A stretch of DNA of 64,000 nucleotides from a virus: positions 1 through 64,000 of the IMG/VR virus record IMGVR_UViG_3300022602_000067; one strand, given 5' to 3'. The notes under the pieces are model-generated. The model was not told the DNA's origin. It worked only from the letters and a program-made list of their open reading frames with translations, and did no database searches. Numbering within the stretch: position 1 is the first letter of the stretch; each line of letters starts with the position of its first letter. The translations under genes and the position numbers were made by a program. Shown here piece by piece: positions 1-6,123 of this stretch.

Positions 1-15
1 GACATTGGAGACAGC

Positions 16-249
16 ATGATTACAATTGAAGATCCTAGATCAAGATATGATCAAAGACATGGCGGACCTTTTGACCGTGGATCAGCAGACTCGTGGTACA
101 GCCGTCCATTCAATCCTCACTTCTACAGGGGTGGAACCTATGAAGGAGCCCGTGTGGAATTGGCGGATATGACAGCTGAAGAGATCGTGGCCTATACCGC
201 AGGCTATCACTGGAATGAGAAGTTCGGCGGGAAGAAAGATTACAATTAA
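16..249 (+). CDS. Hypothetical early phage protein (77 aa)
   Basis: ORF with GGAG SD at 8-11; same strand and codon style as the following early genes. Confidence 0.75.
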   Translation: MITIEDPRSRYDQRHGGPFDRGSADSWYSRPFNPHFYRGGTYEGARVELADMTAEEIVAYTAGYHWNEKFGGKKDYN

Positions 250-269
250 CCCTCCAAAGTGAATGGGAT

Positions 270-298
270 TTGACTGTCTGCCCAAAAGGCGTTATAAT
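270..298 (+). promoter_or_regulatory. sigma70-type early promoter
   Basis: TTGACT(270-275)-17 bp-TATAAT(293-298), then leader ACTAACATCAACAGCAAATAAGGAGCGAAAAATG. Confidence 0.9.
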
Positions 299-329
299 AC
301 TAACATCAACAGCAAATAAGGAGCGAAAA

Positions 330-539
330 ATGACACAATTAAAAGACATGCAAGGTAAAGAGATCAAAGTAGGCGATCGTGTAGCAATGGTCAGCTATCA
401 CAATGCCGGTAGTCTTGTTATTGGGGTAGTTGAGAAACTAGGCCGTGTTCGTGCTCAAGTTCGCCCTGTACAGGCCAGCTTCACTAACATCGACCCTCAA
501 GTAGCCAGCATTGGTTCAACTGATTTAATTAAACTCTAA
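330..539 (+). CDS. Small early protein, possible SH3/KOW-like beta barrel
   Basis: Start reassigned to ATG 330 after AGGAGCG SD; LKDMQGKEIKVGDRVAMV...GVVEK pattern. Confidence 0.75.
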   Translation: MTQLKDMQGKEIKVGDRVAMVSYHNAGSLVIGVVEKLGRVRAQVRPVQASFTNIDPQVASIGSTDLIKL

Positions 540-766
540 TGAAGCGACATTACATCAAATGGAGTGAGGTCCTGACGGGTAATATATCTCTCGAAGATCG
601 AAACAGAATTCGAAACTCTGTTCAGCTCTATGTACTCACTCCTAAGGGCTGGAAAGGTATTGCCGTGTGCTATACTCACAAAGAAGCAGAAGAGTTCAAA
701 GAGCGCATCCTTCAGGGCAAAGTCACGCTCAAATATGAGCATGAAAAAGTCTTTAAGATTGGTTGA
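539..766 (+). CDS. Hypothetical early protein (75 aa)
   Basis: TAATG stop/start overlap with the previous gene; its TGA stop overlaps the next -35 box. Confidence 0.65.
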   Translation: MKRHYIKWSEVLTGNISLEDRNRIRNSVQLYVLTPKGWKGIAVCYTHKEAEEFKERILQGKVTLKYEHEKVFKIG

Positions 767-791
767 CAGTCTAGCCCAAAGACGTTATAAT
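763..791 (+). promoter_or_regulatory. sigma70-type early promoter
   Basis: TTGACA(763-768)-17-TATAAT(786-791); conserved leader ACTAACATCAACAGCAAACAATAGGAGCGAAAA. Confidence 0.92.
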
Positions 792-826
792 ACTAACATC
801 AACAGCAAACAATAGGAGCGAAAACT

Positions 827-1531
827 ATGTTCAAACTATTATCTACAGCGAATCCCAAAATCCAAAAGGGTACTGCCAAAGGCTACCTTTCATTCATCCT
901 GCATCTTGCGCCCAGCGACTTGAGCGGACACAATGTCTGCCCTAAGGCTACCCCTGGTTGCATCTCCGCTTGCCTTAATACAGCAGGACGCGGTGGTATG
1001 TTCCGCAAGGGCGAGACTACCAATGTGATCCAAAAGGCTCGTATTCGTAAGACTCAATTGTTCTTCAATGACAGAACTACATTCTTCAACTATCTTACAC
1101 AGGACATCACTAAGGCCATCGCAATGGCTAAGAAGTTGGGATTGAAGCCCGTGTTCCGCCTTAACGGCACATCAGACTTGAGCTGGGAGAAATACGAAGT
1201 GCCCGGCACTGGCTTGAACATATTCCAAATCTTCCCAGAAGTACAGTTCTACGACTATACTGCCGTCCTGGGTCGCAAGGTGTTTCACATTAATAATTAC
1301 CACCTTACATTCAGCCGCAAAGAGTCTAACGATGCTGACTGCACCCGAGCGATTGCACAAGGCATGAACGTCACTGCCGTGTTTGATAGTATCCCTGAGG
1401 GCATATACTCAGCAGACGAAGATGACCTGCGCTTCTTAGACCCTAAGGTGGGCGTGATTGGTTTGAAGGCTAAGGGCAGGGCCAAAAAAGATTATTCAGG
1501 CTTCGTAATCCGCTTGACAGAAGTGGCTTAA
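827..1531 (+). CDS. Gp88-family protein (Cys-cluster, radical-SAM-like)
   Basis: HLAP..SGHNVCPKATPGCISACL (Cx6Cx3C), RLNGTSD, FYDYT, DLRFLDP..GLKAKG motifs. Confidence 0.75.
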   Translation: MFKLLSTANPKIQKGTAKGYLSFILHLAPSDLSGHNVCPKATPGCISACLNTAGRGGMFRKGETTNVIQKARIRKTQLFFNDRTTFFNYLTQDITKAIAMAKKLGLKPVFRLNGTSDLSWEKYEVPGTGLNIFQIFPEVQFYDYTAVLGRKVFHINNYHLTFSRKESNDADCTRAIAQGMNVTAVFDSIPEGIYSADEDDLRFLDPKVGVIGLKAKGRAKKDYSGFVIRLTEVA

Positions 1532-1542
1532 GAGGCTATAAT
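1514..1542 (+). promoter_or_regulatory. sigma70-type early promoter
   Basis: TTGACA(1514-1519)-17-TATAAT(1537-1542); leader ...CAACAGCAAATAAGGAGCGAAAC. Confidence 0.92.
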
Positions 1543-1575
1543 ACTCATATCAACAGCAAATAAGGAGCGAAACTT

Positions 1576-1761
1576 ATGTCAGATAAACTATATGCCGTCT
1601 GCGACGCAGTCGTAGCCGTCACAGGATTCTTTTTAGTCTATGGAGTGTCAGGCGCAATTGACACCGCAACAGACAGTCAATTGATGCCTTTGGCCCTTAT
1701 GGCCCTAGCAGGCTTGGGCTTGTTCTTCGCAGGCGTTAACGGCTTGACAACCCGTAAGTAA
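1576..1761 (+). CDS. Small two-TM membrane protein
   Basis: Two hydrophobic segments; own promoter and SD. Confidence 0.75.
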   Translation: MSDKLYAVCDAVVAVTGFFLVYGVSGAIDTATDSQLMPLALMALAGLGLFFAGVNGLTTRK

Positions 1762-1772
1762 GACAGTATAAT
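1744..1772 (+). promoter_or_regulatory. sigma70-type early promoter
   Basis: TTGACA(1744-1749)-17-TATAAT(1767-1772); leader CAACAGCAACAAAGGAGCAG. Confidence 0.9.
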
Positions 1773-1803
1773 AACTACTTCAACAGCAACAAAGGAGCAG
1801 ACA

Positions 1804-1899
1804 ATGGAATGTACATACTGTAGAAAATGGCATTTTAAGGGCGTGGCAACTTGTAATGCACCAGGTGCGCCAAAAGAAACTCCACACAAAGGCAGTTGA
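1804..1899 (+). CDS. 31-aa microprotein with a CxxC-x3-H-x6-C putative Zn site
   Basis: Not in the ORF track; MECTYCRKWHFKGVATCNAPGAPKETPHKGS; own promoter and AAGGAG SD; stop overlaps the next -35 box. Confidence 0.7.
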   Translation: MECTYCRKWHFKGVATCNAPGAPKETPHKGS

Positions 1900-1924
1900 C
1901 AGCATGCCCGAAAGGGCTTATAAT
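1896..1924 (+). promoter_or_regulatory. sigma70-type early promoter with hairpin in spacer
   Basis: TTGACA(1896-1901)-17-TATAAT(1919-1924); spacer contains GCCC-GAAA-GGGC. Confidence 0.9.
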
Positions 1925-1956
1925 TAAGACTTACTTAACTTAATCAGGAGCGATAA

Positions 1957-2277
1957 ATGATTACAGCAGATCAAATCAAAGCAGGTTTTGTCTTAGCACA
2001 TCTCGCAGGTGTTGAGATGTATCAAAAGATTGGCGAGCGTGATGCTTGCGGTTTTGGTTGGGTTGATGTCTACGTAGACAGAACCAATTCCAAGCAGGCC
2101 AAGGAGCTGATCAAAGCCGGCTTCCGCAAGGACTACAAACCCAAATGCTTGAGCTATTGGGATCCAGCAAAGATTCCTACTCAATCAATTTCAGTTAAGG
2201 AAGCAGGCGCTGAGGCATTGGCTACTTATCTACAGAGCTTGGGCTTGAAGGCCTACGCAGGTAGTCGAATGGATTGA
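1957..2277 (+). CDS. Hypothetical early phage protein (106 aa)
   Basis: CAGGAGCG SD; own promoter; DACGFGWV...SRMD. Confidence 0.8.
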   Translation: MITADQIKAGFVLAHLAGVEMYQKIGERDACGFGWVDVYVDRTNSKQAKELIKAGFRKDYKPKCLSYWDPAKIPTQSISVKEAGAEALATYLQSLGLKAYAGSRMD

Positions 2278-2302
2278 CCACAAGCCCGCAAGGGCTTATA
2301 AT
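2274..2302 (+). promoter_or_regulatory. sigma70-type early promoter with hairpin in spacer
   Basis: TTGACC(2274-2279)-17-TATAAT(2297-2302); AAGCCC-GCAA-GGGCTT in the spacer. Confidence 0.88.
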
Positions 2303-2333
2303 ACGAACTTAAATACTTTTTACAGGAGCGCAA

Positions 2334-3224
2334 ATGGCAAAGGTAGTCACTTCAAAGATGCTTATGGCACTACAGACAGAATCCAAATCACTCGAGCTAG
2401 ACAACTCGGCAGTCAAGGCCAAAGAGCTAGCACTCAAATCAGAATCAGACGACTCGATCCTCGCTCGTTTGCGTGATCGTTTTGAGATCCTAGACGACAT
2501 GACCCGTGCTGTCAAAGCAGGCAAGGTCAAGGCCATGATCGTAACAGGCCCTCCAGGCGTGGGCAAGAGTTTCGGTGTTGAGAAAGTACTCAGCAAGCAT
2601 GATGTGTTCGCCAATGTAGCCAACGATCAGAAGCTGAAGAAGTACGAAGTAGTCAAAGGCGCAATGAGTGCCATTGGCCTCTACAGCAAGCTCTATCACT
2701 TCAGTGAGAAGAAGTGTGTGTTGGTATTCGATGACTGCGACAGTATCCTCTTGGACGACTTGAGCTTGAACATTCTCAAAGCCGCATTGGATTCAAGCAA
2801 GAAGCGTACTATCCATTGGAACACTGACAGCAGTCTCTTACGCCGTGAAGGTGTGCCTGACAGCTTTGAGTTCAAAGGCGGCGCTATCTTTATTACCAAT
2901 ATTAAGTTCGATCACGTTAAGAGCAAGAAGCTTCGCGATCACTTGGAAGCACTAGAGAGTCGTTGCCACTACTTGGACCTGACTATCGACACAGAGCGTG
3001 AGAAGCTGTTGCGTATACATCAAGTGGTCACAGAGTGCGGCATGCTAGACGACTATGAGCTAGAGGACTATCAGAAGCAAGATGTGCTAGACTTCCTTAA
3101 GGCCAATACACATCGTGTACGCGAGCTGAGCCTGCGTACAGTACTTAAGATAGCAGACTTGGCTGCCAGCTTCCCCGACAAGTGGCAGGCTGTAGCAGAG
3201 TCTACTGTTATGCGTAGAGCATAG
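2334..3224 (+). CDS. AAA-type P-loop ATPase
   Basis: Walker A GPPGVGKS, Walker B VLVFDDCD, sensor-like FITN, ALESRC arginine-finger-like motif. Confidence 0.85.
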   Translation: MAKVVTSKMLMALQTESKSLELDNSAVKAKELALKSESDDSILARLRDRFEILDDMTRAVKAGKVKAMIVTGPPGVGKSFGVEKVLSKHDVFANVANDQKLKKYEVVKGAMSAIGLYSKLYHFSEKKCVLVFDDCDSILLDDLSLNILKAALDSSKKRTIHWNTDSSLLRREGVPDSFEFKGGAIFITNIKFDHVKSKKLRDHLEALESRCHYLDLTIDTEREKLLRIHQVVTECGMLDDYELEDYQKQDVLDFLKANTHRVRELSLRTVLKIADLAASFPDKWQAVAESTVMRRA

Positions 3225-3228
3225 AGTA

Positions 3229-3376
3229 GGGCAGGGTGCATGCATAGCACCCACCCAGTAGATGCCCAACGATTCGCTCCCGGCAAGCATCTACACCAAA
3301 AGCGCCGTAAATCCGATTCGCTCCCGGTCGCGCTTTTTAGGTCCCCAGGGGATTAGGTTCTCTGGGGATTTTTTTT
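3229..3376 (+). ncRNA. Candidate structured 3'-UTR sRNA with two anti-SD hairpins
   Basis: Hairpin GGGTGC/GCACCC; stems GTAGATGC/GCATCTAC (3258-3294) and AAAAGCGC/GCGCTTTT (3298-3337) each enclose an identical CGATTCGCTCCCGG; ends at a terminator. Confidence 0.6.
3342..3376 (+). terminator. Rho-independent terminator ending the early region
   Basis: TCCCCAGGGGA...TCTCTGGGGA stem followed by T8. Confidence 0.85.
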
Positions 3377-3511
3377 CTTTCGGAAAAGATATTTGAAAAA
3401 AAAGATATCGAGAGAGATCGGTCGGGGGGTACGGGGCATATATGTTTGCAAACTGTTGTAACAGCGCAACAGCGCATGGGTACCGAAGTATTTTCACCCC
3501 TCTCAAATTTT

Positions 3512-3620
3512 AAGTACTTCTTTATAATTTTTTACGCGGGCAATTTTTTCTAGTTAGTTTTACCTCGGGCCCGGACCCTAAGTACTTCTCACGATTTTTT
3601 TGCGCACTATTTTTTTTACC
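3512..3620. repeat. AAGTACTTCT..T-tract..(G/A)CGC..T-tract motif, two copies (others at ~4595 and ~6790)
   Basis: AAGTACTTCT at 3512, 3580 and 4595, variant AAGTAC at 6790; each followed by T6-7, TGCGC/TACGC and another T tract. Confidence 0.7.
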
Positions 3621-3649
3621 CTGTAGGTGCCTTTCGGGTAAGTATATAC

Positions 3650-3868
3650 ATGGATGCTCACTTGATAATTCCCAGGATTATAACCGCTCTGCTCAGCATA
3701 TTCCAAGCTGCCAGCCTGCGTGATCGTCTTTATCTGTCAGAACAGCGTGTGGAAGTTCTGTCACTAGCTCTAGAAGATATAGCTCGTATAAATGCCAATT
3801 CTGCCAATCCCAATGCACTTATAGCAGGCATCTGCTCCAGTCGCGTTACTCAGCGTCAGGACGACTGA
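3650..3868 (+). CDS. Hypothetical protein (72 aa)
   Basis: ORF preceded by a TAAGTA late-type box 5 nt before ATG. Confidence 0.55.
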   Translation: MDAHLIIPRIITALLSIFQAASLRDRLYLSEQRVEVLSLALEDIARINANSANPNALIAGICSSRVTQRQDD

Positions 3869-4572
3869 TCACAAAGTCCACTCAACACTCTAATACGATC
3901 AATGTCTTCGCTGATCTTGATCTTTTTATCCAAGCCTGTAGTCTGTGCTAGTGTTTGGGCATGTTTCAATTTATCCGCATCACTGACCAGTCCTGCTCCT
4001 GCTGTATAGGCCTTTTCTGCACGTCCCACTAGATCATCTGCCTGTGCTACGAAAGGATTGCCTGTATTGCGTACAGCGCCACGTATATCGCCCTGTGCTA
4101 GTTTTTGTCCCGTGTCTATAGCTGTTTGAACACGATCACTTCCCGGAACAAAATCTAGTGCAGTTTTGGCCGCATCCACATAGTTGCCCTGTGCCGCCGT
4201 TTGAGCGATGTCAGTACCCTTGGCTAGTGTGCCTAAATTTTGCGCTAGTCCGCCTCCGGCTATGCCGGCTACTGCTTGTAGTGCGCCTTTGGCATCTCCC
4301 CTAGCAATACTGGTGGCCGCATTAACTACAGTTAGCACTAGTCTAGTCTGTGGCAATAACTTCAGTGCTGTCATTATGGTGGGATGTGTTTTCATCCAAC
4401 CGTTAACTGTGTCTACTATGCCCTTGGCGGTAAGTTCACTGACACCATCATCGTCACTATCAATTTGTTTAAGCAACGCTTCAGCTTCATCCCATTCTTG
4501 TTGACGCTGTGCCAGTCTTTCAGGAGGAGTGGGTTGCACCGCGAGATTTTCAGTTATTTCTTTGATCAGCAT
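3856..4572 (-). CDS. Putative internal head/core protein
   Basis: N-terminal MLIKEITE, C-terminal EDIDRIRVLSGL, Ala/Gly-rich helical repeats; TAAATA box upstream. Confidence 0.6.
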   Translation of the reverse strand: MLIKEITENLAVQPTPPERLAQRQQEWDEAEALLKQIDSDDDGVSELTAKGIVDTVNGWMKTHPTIMTALKLLPQTRLVLTVVNAATSIARGDAKGALQAVAGIAGGGLAQNLGTLAKGTDIAQTAAQGNYVDAAKTALDFVPGSDRVQTAIDTGQKLAQGDIRGAVRNTGNPFVAQADDLVGRAEKAYTAGAGLVSDADKLKHAQTLAQTTGLDKKIKISEDIDRIRVLSGLCDQSS

Positions 4573-4636: not shown

Positions 4637-5284
4637 CTATATACCTTTTCTTAGTAACTCTGCATATTGATTCTGTGCTTCAATACCATAGTGATCAAAT
4701 TCTAGTGGATGATATCTCTCCGCACACCATTTGACATAGTTGGGGTATAGACTATCTCCAAGCTCAGGTGATGCTAGTATTTCAATCAATCGATAGCCAG
4801 TAGTAAGGCTACGTACTATCTCGCGTTGACGATCTAAAGTAGTATCGTCGACCCTTAACATCTGTTCTACATAATAGTCGTTGATAGGATGACGTCTTTT
4901 TACAGACTTTAGCATACTACCATACCACTGTACACCCACTTGTATGTAATTGTCTCTGTCTCTAGCTAGCCACAGACCCTGATCTGGATAGTAAAATTCC
5001 GTTCTCTGAGGTTCAGTATAAGCCACTATGATAACAGTGTCTCGAGTATAAGTAGGCAGATCCTGTTGAATCTTACGTATGGTACGTGTGTTACTACCAC
5101 CCGACATGGCTCGATTACAACAGACCACGCCCATAAATTCAGCTAACCGATTTGGCCAGCTCATGGGTCTAGTTAGATCGTCCATGTCTTCCAAATCTAT
5201 GCGGCCTTGGAGATAGTCTAGAAAAAGTTCTGAACCCAGTAATTCCATCCCGCTACTATGACTGCATCCATATGCGTATATCAC
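4637..5284 (-). CDS. SGNH/GDSL-like hydrolase
   Basis: Block I AYGCSHSSG, SWP, NRAMSGGSN, C-terminal DHYG. Confidence 0.65.
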   Translation of the reverse strand: MIYAYGCSHSSGMELLGSELFLDYLQGRIDLEDMDDLTRPMSWPNRLAEFMGVVCCNRAMSGGSNTRTIRKIQQDLPTYTRDTVIIVAYTEPQRTEFYYPDQGLWLARDRDNYIQVGVQWYGSMLKSVKRRHPINDYYVEQMLRVDDTTLDRQREIVRSLTTGYRLIEILASPELGDSLYPNYVKWCAERYHPLEFDHYGIEAQNQYAELLRKGI

Positions 5285-6123
5285 TGTGGTGAATCTCCCC
5301 AGTTGCCGCCCACTTGATTCATACCAATACTGTCGCCAATATTTTCCTTGGTTTTAGCGTCAACAGTAGTACCCGCGGGTGCGGCCACAACTGGGCTGGT
5401 ATTGGGATCTAGTCTACTGGCATACATCATTGAGCGAGACTCTCTTTCGGCTCTATGCTTCTGATTACCACTGACTAGTTCAGTGATTTTAACTGCATCA
5501 CGCCAATTTGACACATTGGGTCTAATGCGATGCAACCAGTAGTTGACTGCTCCCTGTGCCGCTGTAGTGGGCGTGGCCAAGAGTTCAGGTTTTGCGATTA
5601 CTGGTAATCCCGAATCCTGTTGAAACTGCGTGTAGTTCCAGCGTCCAGTGACTTGTATAAAGCCACGTCCAATGTATCGTTTGCCATCACCTTTTTGAGT
5701 GTTGCCCAGGATTGTAGCAGTCTTTGAAGGCGGTTCATACCACTTCATCCACTTGTTGGGCCGTTCTACTAGTGTAGTATAGCCGATGGTTTCTACATAG
5801 CACTGACCCATTAGTGCGGCCAATTCTAGGCCATGTATGCCTTTGGATCTAGCAGTTTTTTCCAATACACTGGCCAGAGGATTTTGTGTCAACGGGGGTT
5901 CAGCGCGGGGCTTGGCAGGTTCTGCACCTTGATTGGCCGTATGATCTCGACCTAGTCCAAACAAATTACCAAACATACCTAGCCCGCCCAACACAGCTGA
6001 TCTACGGCTGGGATCCTGGGGATCATCGGGCAATTCTAGCAGGTGTTGATCCTGTTCACGTTCCGAACCCATGCCCATGTGGGGATTGGTTATGTAGTTT
6101 TCCGAGAATTCTTTGAAACGCAT
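5281..6123 (-). CDS. GH19 (chitinase/lysozyme-like) hydrolase, probably virion associated
   Basis: AALMGQCYVET, LGNTQKGDGKRYIGRGFIQVTGRWNY; N-terminus MRFKEFSE. Confidence 0.85.
   Translation of the reverse strand: MRFKEFSENYITNPHMGMGSEREQDQHLLELPDDPQDPSRRSAVLGGLGMFGNLFGLGRDHTANQGAEPAKPRAEPPLTQNPLASVLEKTARSKGIHGLELAALMGQCYVETIGYTTLVERPNKWMKWYEPPSKTATILGNTQKGDGKRYIGRGFIQVTGRWNYTQFQQDSGLPVIAKPELLATPTTAAQGAVNYWLHRIRPNVSNWRDAVKITELVSGNQKHRAERESRSMMYASRLDPNTSPVVAAPAGTTVDAKTKENIGDSIGMNQVGGNWGDSPQ

Follow-up and report, generated by a model that had tools for sequence, protein, structure and literature searches.

Complementarity between early Shine-Dalgarno sites and a tandem-hairpin 3′ untranslated region in an uncultured jumbo phage: a candidate self-limiting circuit

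The stretch of viral DNA analysed here (64,000 nucleotides (nt), hereafter the window) is the first 64 kb of the 81-kb IMG/VR virus contig IMGVR_UViG_3300022602_000067, to which CheckV assigns a completeness of 23%. Its early genes carry at their Shine-Dalgarno (SD) sequences a common tag, GGAGCGAA, and the complement of this tag is displayed in the apical loops of two hairpins, A and B, which lie behind the last early gene in the untranslated stretch at the 3′ end (3′UTR). Loop and tag very probably pair with each other as RNA, because the repeated matched switches of both among relatives exclude coincidence and because a duplex-DNA operator fails on orientation, on placement at the SD and on the hairpins. 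To the fuller reading, namely that this 3′UTR, complementary to ribosome-binding sites (RBSs), pairs with the tagged early messages and limits their translation as a negative feedback, we assign a probability of roughly one half.

Tagged early genes and their common tail

Bases 1-3224 of the window form a + strand block of small genes with one promoter before each (Table 1). The six promoters agree with the consensus at 12 of 12 positions in four cases and at 11 of 12 in two, all with a spacer of 17 nt, and promoter-like sites in 1-4200 number 13 against 5.6 expected. The structure at 3339-3376 has the GC-rich stem, the short loop and the following U run of an intrinsic terminator; it is the strongest of four terminator-like sites in 1-4200, a count that is not raised, since 3.0 are expected from shuffles. 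Given six promoters and one strong + strand terminator, the six early transcripts should be 3′-coterminal and share a tail of about 150 nt, which runs from the ATPase stop (3224) to the T run (3369-3376). This agrees with the location in a shared 3′UTR of the early block that had been proposed in an earlier, sequence-only reading of this DNA.

The + strand of 3225-3376 folds into four hairpins, the last of which is the terminator, with a minimum free energy (MFE) of −58.9 kcal/mol (z −3.59) that none of 200 shuffles reached. The stems of A and B are unrelated, while both present an identical, accessible loop sequence with the core UUCGCUCC. In both, the apical 9 nt, AUUCGCUCC, sit on an inner helix of 2-3 base pairs (bp); apart from this helix the loops are open in the MFE structure of the + strand, and in the ensemble 0.12 kcal/mol suffices to open the core of 8 nt. 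Neither hairpin, with loops of 21-24 nt, was called a terminator in the window. The position of the first hairpin of the tail (3234-3252) is common in relatives and its sequence is not conserved.

The 14-mer presented by A and B, CGATTCGCTCCCGG, has no further copy, with up to 2 mismatches, in the window or in the 81-kb contig. A search of 2800-4000 against Rfam 15 (both strands, E up to 10, permissive filters) gave nothing on hairpins A or B; the best match, NsiR1, scored 24.1 bits against a gathering score of 39 and covers only the terminator region (3328-3376). Moreover, the 21-nt loop pattern of class A hairpins had no exact match in the genomes of 185,579 species, and therefore a host copy or mimic was not found. 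An open reading frame (ORF) of 44 amino acids (aa) that runs through the hairpins (3262-3396, +) was rejected as a gene because relatives keep the pairing and the loop, not the reading frame.

The tag is composed of the SD core GGAG and a private 4-nt extension, CGAA. It is found 5 times in the window against 0.87 expected, and 0 of 100 shuffles reached 5. On the + strand its only copies begin at 320, 815 and 1564, each 4-7 nt before an ATG (330, 827 and 1576), and in the remaining two the loops of A and B are read from the minus strand. A shorter part of the tag, 5-7 nt, stands before another three early genes, and every early transcript contains at least one tagged or part-tagged SD together with both loops. 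SDs of the GGAGCG type precede 5 of the 6 early ORFs with a clear SD and 1 of 30 others; the loop is thus complementary to an SD extension specific to early genes. The sequence-only reading had described the two hairpins, the 14-mer, the reverse-complementary SDs and the partial tags, and all its coordinates and sequences proved correct. Its remark that GGAGCG stands at no late or replication gene start in the window holds as well: the one such SD outside the early block (gene 75116-76177, −, of the contig) lies beyond the window. Finally, the start regions of the 75 ORFs of the contig were ranked as loop targets by an RNAup-like sum of hybrid energy and target opening energy. The six early genes occupied ranks 1-4 and 6-7, with totals between −12.9 and −7.7 kcal/mol, where the median was −2.3 kcal/mol.

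Table 1. Features of the early block and of its 3′ tail (positions in the window).
Feature	Position	Strand	Remark
Six sigma70-type promoters	270-298, 763-791, 1514-1542, 1744-1772, 1896-1924, 2274-2302	+	each fronts one early gene
Tagged SD GGAGCGAA of 69-aa gene 330-539	320-327	+	total −12.9 kcal/mol, best predicted loop target
Tagged SD GGAGCGAA of GP88-family gene 827-1531	815-822	+	total −10.5 kcal/mol
Tagged SD GGAGCGAA of 61-aa gene 1576-1761	1564-1571	+	total −9.8 kcal/mol
Partial tag GGAGC of 31-aa ORF 1804-1899	1794-1798	+	rank 6 of 75 ORFs (ORF entered one base off)
Partial tag GGAGCGA of gene 1957-2277	1947-1953	+	total −11.0 kcal/mol, rank 2
Partial tag GGAGCG of NrdC.10-like AAA ATPase gene 2334-3224	2325-2330	+	rank 7
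First 3′UTR hairpin, GGGTGC / GCACCC, no tag complement	3234-3252	+	fold
Hairpin A, 8-bp stem GTAGATGC (3258-3265) / GCATCTAC (3287-3294), inner 2-bp helix	3258-3294	+	
Loop of hairpin A, 14-mer CGATTCGCTCCCGG	3270-3283 (core 3273-3280)	+	apical
Hairpin B, 8-bp stem AAAAGCGC (3298-3305) / GCGCTTTT (3330-3337), inner 3-bp helix CCG/CGG	3298-3337	+	
Loop of hairpin B, 14-mer CGATTCGCTCCCGG	3314-3327 (core 3317-3324)	+	apical
Intrinsic terminator, 15-pair stem, T8 at 3369-3376	3339-3376 (stem 3339-3371)	+	fold and terminator scan

Tag and loop among relatives

Relatives were collected in four scans, which confirmed 133, 101, 184 and 318 loci; the best 80 of each were kept, and the sets overlap. 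The first scan, seeded with the ATPase of the window, provided the best 80 of 133 loci (69-86% identity, 562,381 bases), and with two further scans seeded with more distant ATPases the total came to 150 non-identical loci, all of which adjoin an ATPase like NrdC.10 of T4.

Across 80 loci, 148 of the + strand copies of the motif TTCGCTCC fall in the 300 nt that follow the ATPase stop, as against 4 in all other places. GGAGCGAA has 223 copies on the same strand, nearly all of them immediately upstream of a start codon and preceded by a TATAAT box. Removal of duplicates leaves 109 hairpins from the 150 loop instances; among their 5′ arms 103 are distinct, and a stem score of 6 or more is reached by 91%. 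In the alignment of class A hairpins (23 relatives) the 21-nt loop region is invariant and 8 of 8 outer stem pairs show compensatory changes; 91.7% of the cells are paired, against 65.8% in shuffles and at most 40% in controls with a slid partner. Selection acts on the loops, and the stems drift, which bears out what had been argued from the different stems and the invariant loop of A and B in the window. A T-rich run directly follows the loop-bearing hairpin in 37 of the 109 unique hairpins, which settles the strand as + and puts the loop at the extreme 3′ end of the RNA.

The joint change of loop and early SD, for which the sequence-only reading had asked that relatives be tested, is found between two large clades. 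The 77 loci with the loop TCGCTCC (clade 1, that of the window phage) contain 293 SDs of the GGAGCGA type and 26 of the GAGGGC type, whereas the 34 loci with the loop GCCCTC (clade 2) contain 7 and 165, respectively; in 38 loci with neither loop the numbers are 6 and 17, and one locus (L080) has both loop motifs. On a tree of 149 ATPase sequences the loci with GCCCTC make up a single branch, and the combination of one loop type with the other tag does not occur. With RBSs selected on the 4-nt SD core alone and ORF sets that are crude, the 4 nt after this core are CGAA in 148 of 325 early RBSs of clade 1 and GCAA in 58 of 137 of clade 2. The hairpins of clade 2 have an invariant loop of their own, UGUGCCCUCG, with compensatory changes in 5 of 6 pairs and 91.7% pairing against 61% in shuffles.

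A third group, large and obtained in the fourth scan, has its special sequence on the RBS of the ATPase gene only. There, the hairpin loop behind the ATPase mirrors this gene's own RBS, sometimes from the SD through to the AUG, as in the matched pairs UUAGCUCCU with AGGAGCUAA and CUAGCUCCU with AGGAGCUAG. The loop UUAGCUCC accompanies the RBS GGAGCUAA in 9 loci and the loop CUAGCUCC accompanies GGAGCUAG in 4, with no discordant locus, and the single-base pair of RBS A/G with loop U/C is concordant in 13 of 13 unique loci. Further matched combinations in this group are the loop UUGUCUAGCUCCU with the RBS AGGAGCCUAGACAAUG (L155, L157 and L316) and the loop CAUUUGUCUG with CAGACAAAUG (L250); two small lineages apart from it have CACUCCU with AGGAGUG (L162) and CUCCUUCAU with AUGAAGGAG (L158). 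Since in the third group one gene's RBS is mirrored in its own 3′UTR, autoregulation of the ATPase is suggested as the older state; the pattern suggests that the tag later spread over the early block in the clade of the window phage.

In three near-complete relatives the 11-mer GATTCGCTCCC is restricted to this element, except for its complement at one distant RBS. In G002 (L087, 1516-2103, +) this RBS is the full complement of the 14-nt loop motif and serves a gene whose product, of about 195 aa, has hydrophobic stretches; in G001 (L089) the complement is shorter and there is an extra upstream copy. In these two genomes the gene lies at about 279-284 kb. The existence of such an RBS in two relatives makes action in trans at least possible, and this gene, at a distance of about 280 kb, may be a trans target that is not part of the early block. 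It encodes a putative membrane protein; its neighbours are a cspA-like cold-shock gene on one side and, on the other, a 249-aa ORF for a putative desaturase.

The product of the last early gene (2334-3224) matches only AAA ATPase families of Pfam and is homologous to that of the conserved T4/T2 gene nrdC.10, with 34-46% identity across 1306 phage records. Thioredoxin is a frequent mislabel in these records, and the function of nrdC.10 is unknown. The nearest isolates by this ATPase belong to the Pseudomonas PA5oct group (46% identity); in them further genes follow the ATPase and the hairpin element was not found, and behind nrdC.10 of T2 (34.7% identity) there is no anti-RBS hairpin. In a clade at 64-66% ATPase identity (L209-L247) a promoter and a gene come directly after the ATPase and the hairpins are absent. 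The leaders of this clade, A/T-rich and of very small length, suggest that its host, or this class of genes, makes weak use of the SD.

With respect to the other early genes, the GP88 family to which 827-1531 belongs is PF17338 (E 1.7e-36), of unknown function. The 69-aa protein of 330-539 was considered as a phage ProQ C-terminal-like protein (E 0.0018, 19.3 bits against a cut-off of 27). It has 11 homologues, all uncharacterised and mostly with the precomputed Pfam label PF23835, and this lead was dropped because the match is sub-threshold and the homologues carry PF23835.

Relatives reach sizes of 345-383 kb and the phages are uncultured and aquatic; the window is therefore a piece of an uncultured jumbo phage. 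The sequencing runs that contain it are lake-water and freshwater metagenomes. It encodes T4-type replication genes and myovirus structural genes; a DNA search among isolated phages gave no close relative, with one 60-nt match to a Serratia phage, and a scan of the window for tRNA and tmRNA gave none. The 280-aa protein at 5281-6123 (−) has a glycoside hydrolase 19 (chitinase class I) domain (E 1.5e-07) and is presumably a lysin. On the 3′ side of the terminator, at the switch from + to − strand genes, 3440-3600 is a conserved non-coding stretch with an inverted repeat of the CTGTTG..CAACAG type, a box ..AATCACCAGG.. and repeated words resembling AAGTACTTC, with G-rich and A/T-rich runs on the flanks. 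It has a counterpart downstream of the terminator in L080, L081, L094, L096, L134, L142 and L143; possible readings are an origin, a packaging signal and another RNA.

Proposed mechanism and alternatives

In the mechanism that we propose, the common 3′UTR of all early transcripts would fold into tandem hairpins, two of them presenting the 9-nt loop, which would base-pair with the tag at the early SDs. The RBS that it meets could belong to its own molecule or to a sister message of the early class. Once the transcript is complete the RBS would be occluded, further initiations would become fewer and decay would probably be invited, so that the early messages would be self-limiting. We infer that the pairing takes place in vivo, that it represses and that the + strand RNA is the active form. 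Negative feedback was chosen as the outcome because every tested precedent of SD occlusion considered here (icaR, OppZ/CarZ and the anti-SD-like 8-mers of Bacillus subtilis) is repressive.

Several observations weigh against this proposal and must be considered. The switch between clades 1 and 2 is a single change on the tree, and the co-change of RBS A/G with loop U/C amounts to three changes per trait, with 2-3 independent pairs concordant (sign test p 0.5). Within clade-1 loci there are the 26 SDs of the GAGGGC type, and fewer than 2 tagged SDs are found in 12 of 76 clade-1 loci. The element is absent from 38 of the 150 loci, as it is from T2. In the window, the RBS of the ATPase itself matches the loop over 6 nt only (GGAGCG). 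In addition, a global test in which each ATPase RBS was aligned to its own 3′ region and to the 3′ regions of loci with an unlike RBS was weak: the mean score was 15.3 for own and 13.9 for cross pairs, scores of at least 18 were reached in 20% and 7.5%, respectively, and the own pair surpassed all 30 cross pairs in 4% of the loci. By exact match, 8 nt were reached in 49% of clade-1, 18% of clade-2 and 13% of other loci. With regard to expression, the data consist of unstranded contigs from RNA libraries, which possibly contain DNA. Those from four lake metatranscriptome runs span scattered parts of 16-3289, and two X16 contigs of a relative run from the 3′ end of the ATPase into hairpin A and then show loop letters typical of class B. 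Over 3361-4200 there is no contig, a gap that by the rule of the search tool carries no weight as evidence. Lastly, the flanks of the loops (CCAAC..GGYAA; UAAGYCC..GGYN) are conserved beyond the pairing core, and therefore an additional partner is possible; this conservation may reflect a bound protein or a tertiary fold.

Among the alternatives, we regard as rather doubtful that a processed, stable small RNA (sRNA) of about 150 nt, released for example by an RNase E cut, accumulates while the early genes are transcribed and then silences the tagged early regulon in trans as a timer; it would be an RNA counterpart of T4 RegB/RegA in the switch from early to middle expression. Its support comes from the complementarity and co-change that also underlie the proposed feedback. 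Three or four hairpins and a terminator would shield such a fragment from exonucleases, the loop-complementary RBS about 280 kb away (a 14-mer in G002, shorter in G001) could be reached in trans only, and OppZ/CarZ are a precedent for the mechanism (PMC7398697). No match to RegB (PF10715) or RegA (PF01818) was obtained in 4 near-complete relatives, but the control genomes also gave none, and since these searches lacked a working positive control the absence is not established. On the other hand, a scan of 2303-3257 (+) found no promoter for an independent transcript, and in the third group the loop has its complement at the RBS of the immediately preceding gene only, a pattern more in keeping with self-regulation than with a regulon timer.

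A speculative extension, for which we would give low odds, is that tag and loop act as an address code between phages. The tail on the early messages of a resident phage, abundant and resistant to nucleases, would silence the early genes of an incoming relative with the same tag, a superinfection exclusion made of RNA only, and escape from the loops of competitors while keeping one's own would drive the appearance of at least eight matched pairs in related aquatic jumbo phages. No protein of the RegA/RegB type would be needed, the shut-off being written into the messages themselves. A resemblance is provided by the heteroimmunity of phages P1 and P7, whose c4 antisense RNA (ImmI) has loops that pair around an RBS on its parent transcript and whose specificity is set by small changes. 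The c4 system serves one antirepressor operon of a temperate phage, with two different loops for two sites.

It is improbable that the loops pair with the tagged RBSs to a protective or otherwise positive effect, for instance by shielding GGAG from a RegB-like or host endonuclease or by storing untranslated messages for later use. Complementarity and co-change are neutral on the sign of the effect, and RegB needs an 11-nt single-stranded site (PMC1702504), so that a duplex would block cutting. However, occlusion of the SD blocks initiation in every tested case in three reports (PMC3868564, PMC12697547, PMC7398697), and no RegB homologue was found in the 4 relatives, where the controls were also silent.

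Still lower stands the possibility that the hairpins are mainly a protein-binding or terminator-accessory motif, recognised by an early phage protein or a host factor, and that complementarity to the tag is secondary. Invariance extends past the 8 pairing bases to the loop flanks and the inner helix, a sub-threshold ProQ-like match exists for the first early gene, and the maturation of CcsR RNAs is aided by a small RNA-binding protein encoded upstream (PMC8034643). Nevertheless, the ProQ lead is unsupported, given the label PF23835 of the homologues of the 69-aa protein, and such a motif leaves unexplained why two large clades at least, and several small lineages, switched tag and loop together.

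A site for a duplex-DNA regulator behind each early promoter and twice inverted at the end of the block, whose change of specificity would shift all copies and also explain the co-change of clades, is hardly credible, because the copies keep a strict orientation (one for the 223 in leaders, the reverse for the 148 on the 3′ side, with 4 exceptions), the leader copies stand at SD distance from the ATG with the SD core kept in every lineage, and the 3′ copies are always in apical loops on covarying stems, often followed by a T run, a placement that is an RNA signature.

Comparison with known systems

Literature searches, supplementary files aside, gave no description of this element. Three aspects look new: a private SD extension common to a whole temporal class of genes, the display of its complement on the common tail of the messages and a family of tag/loop pairs that co-evolve. 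Should the pairing be real, a temporal gene class would be addressed through a private SD extension and read by a loop in the same messages, and early expression would be made self-limiting without a protein. Natural orthogonal RBS/anti-RBS pairs would evolve by co-switching and would constitute a ready set of matched parts for synthetic control of translation. In addition, 3′UTR regulation of the bacterial type (icaR, OppZ) would operate operon-wide in the abundant, uncultured giant phages of lakes and the sea. With hundreds of loci and several tag/loop pairs, the hypothesis is directly testable without first isolating the host.

The sequence-only reading had likened the loops to those of RNAIII and RsaE. 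This likeness is loose, and closer analogues are the icaR 3′UTR, OppZ/CarZ and the cuckoo/CcsR RNAs. In Staphylococcus aureus, an anti-SD motif in the icaR 3′UTR pairs with the SD of its own messenger, blocks initiation and creates a substrate for RNase III (PMC3868564), and here too a 3′UTR motif is complementary to SDs of the same messages. However, icaR concerns one gene, one motif (UCCCCUG) and a generic SD, whereas the phage element has tandem loops, covarying hairpins, a private 4-nt SD extension and six nested transcripts. OppZ and CarZ of Vibrio cholerae are 3′UTR-derived RNase E products that exert negative feedback, with Hfq among the keywords of the report (PMC7398697). The phage element likewise lies in an operon 3′UTR with a shared terminator and is complementary to the RBS region of its own transcript; they target one cistron each, in contrast to up to six tagged cistrons in the phage.

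In anatomy, the nearest are the cuckoo RNAs CcsR1-4 (alpha-r14) of Alphaproteobacteria, with 2-4 adjacent hairpins that share a pyrimidine-rich, anti-SD-like loop on variable stems (PMC4615179, PMC8034643); the phage hairpins are also in tandem, with one loop motif, variable stems and an origin in a 3′UTR. Their loop motif, CCUCCUCCC (PMC4615179), is not that of the phage loop AUUCGCUCC, and as described they are chromosomal stress RNAs with scattered targets, whereas the phage operon mirrors its own RBSs. In Bacillus subtilis, 8-mers resembling the anti-SD pair with the RBS from hundreds of nt downstream, block initiation and promote decay; these are synthetic and depleted in natural genes (PMC12697547), unlike the phage loop, which is conserved, displayed and matched to a tag. 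T4 RegB cuts GGAG in early SDs within an 11-nt single-stranded site (PMC1702504), and in both phages the early messages are marked at the SD, by GGAG and the next bases, which in the present phage would allow their inactivation as a class. RegB is a protein nuclease that reads GGA and an A-rich tail, while the reader of the tag here would be an RNA loop. Judged by analogy, the phage element is in its logic nearest to icaR and OppZ/CarZ, and in its role it would be a parallel to T4 RegB/RegA.

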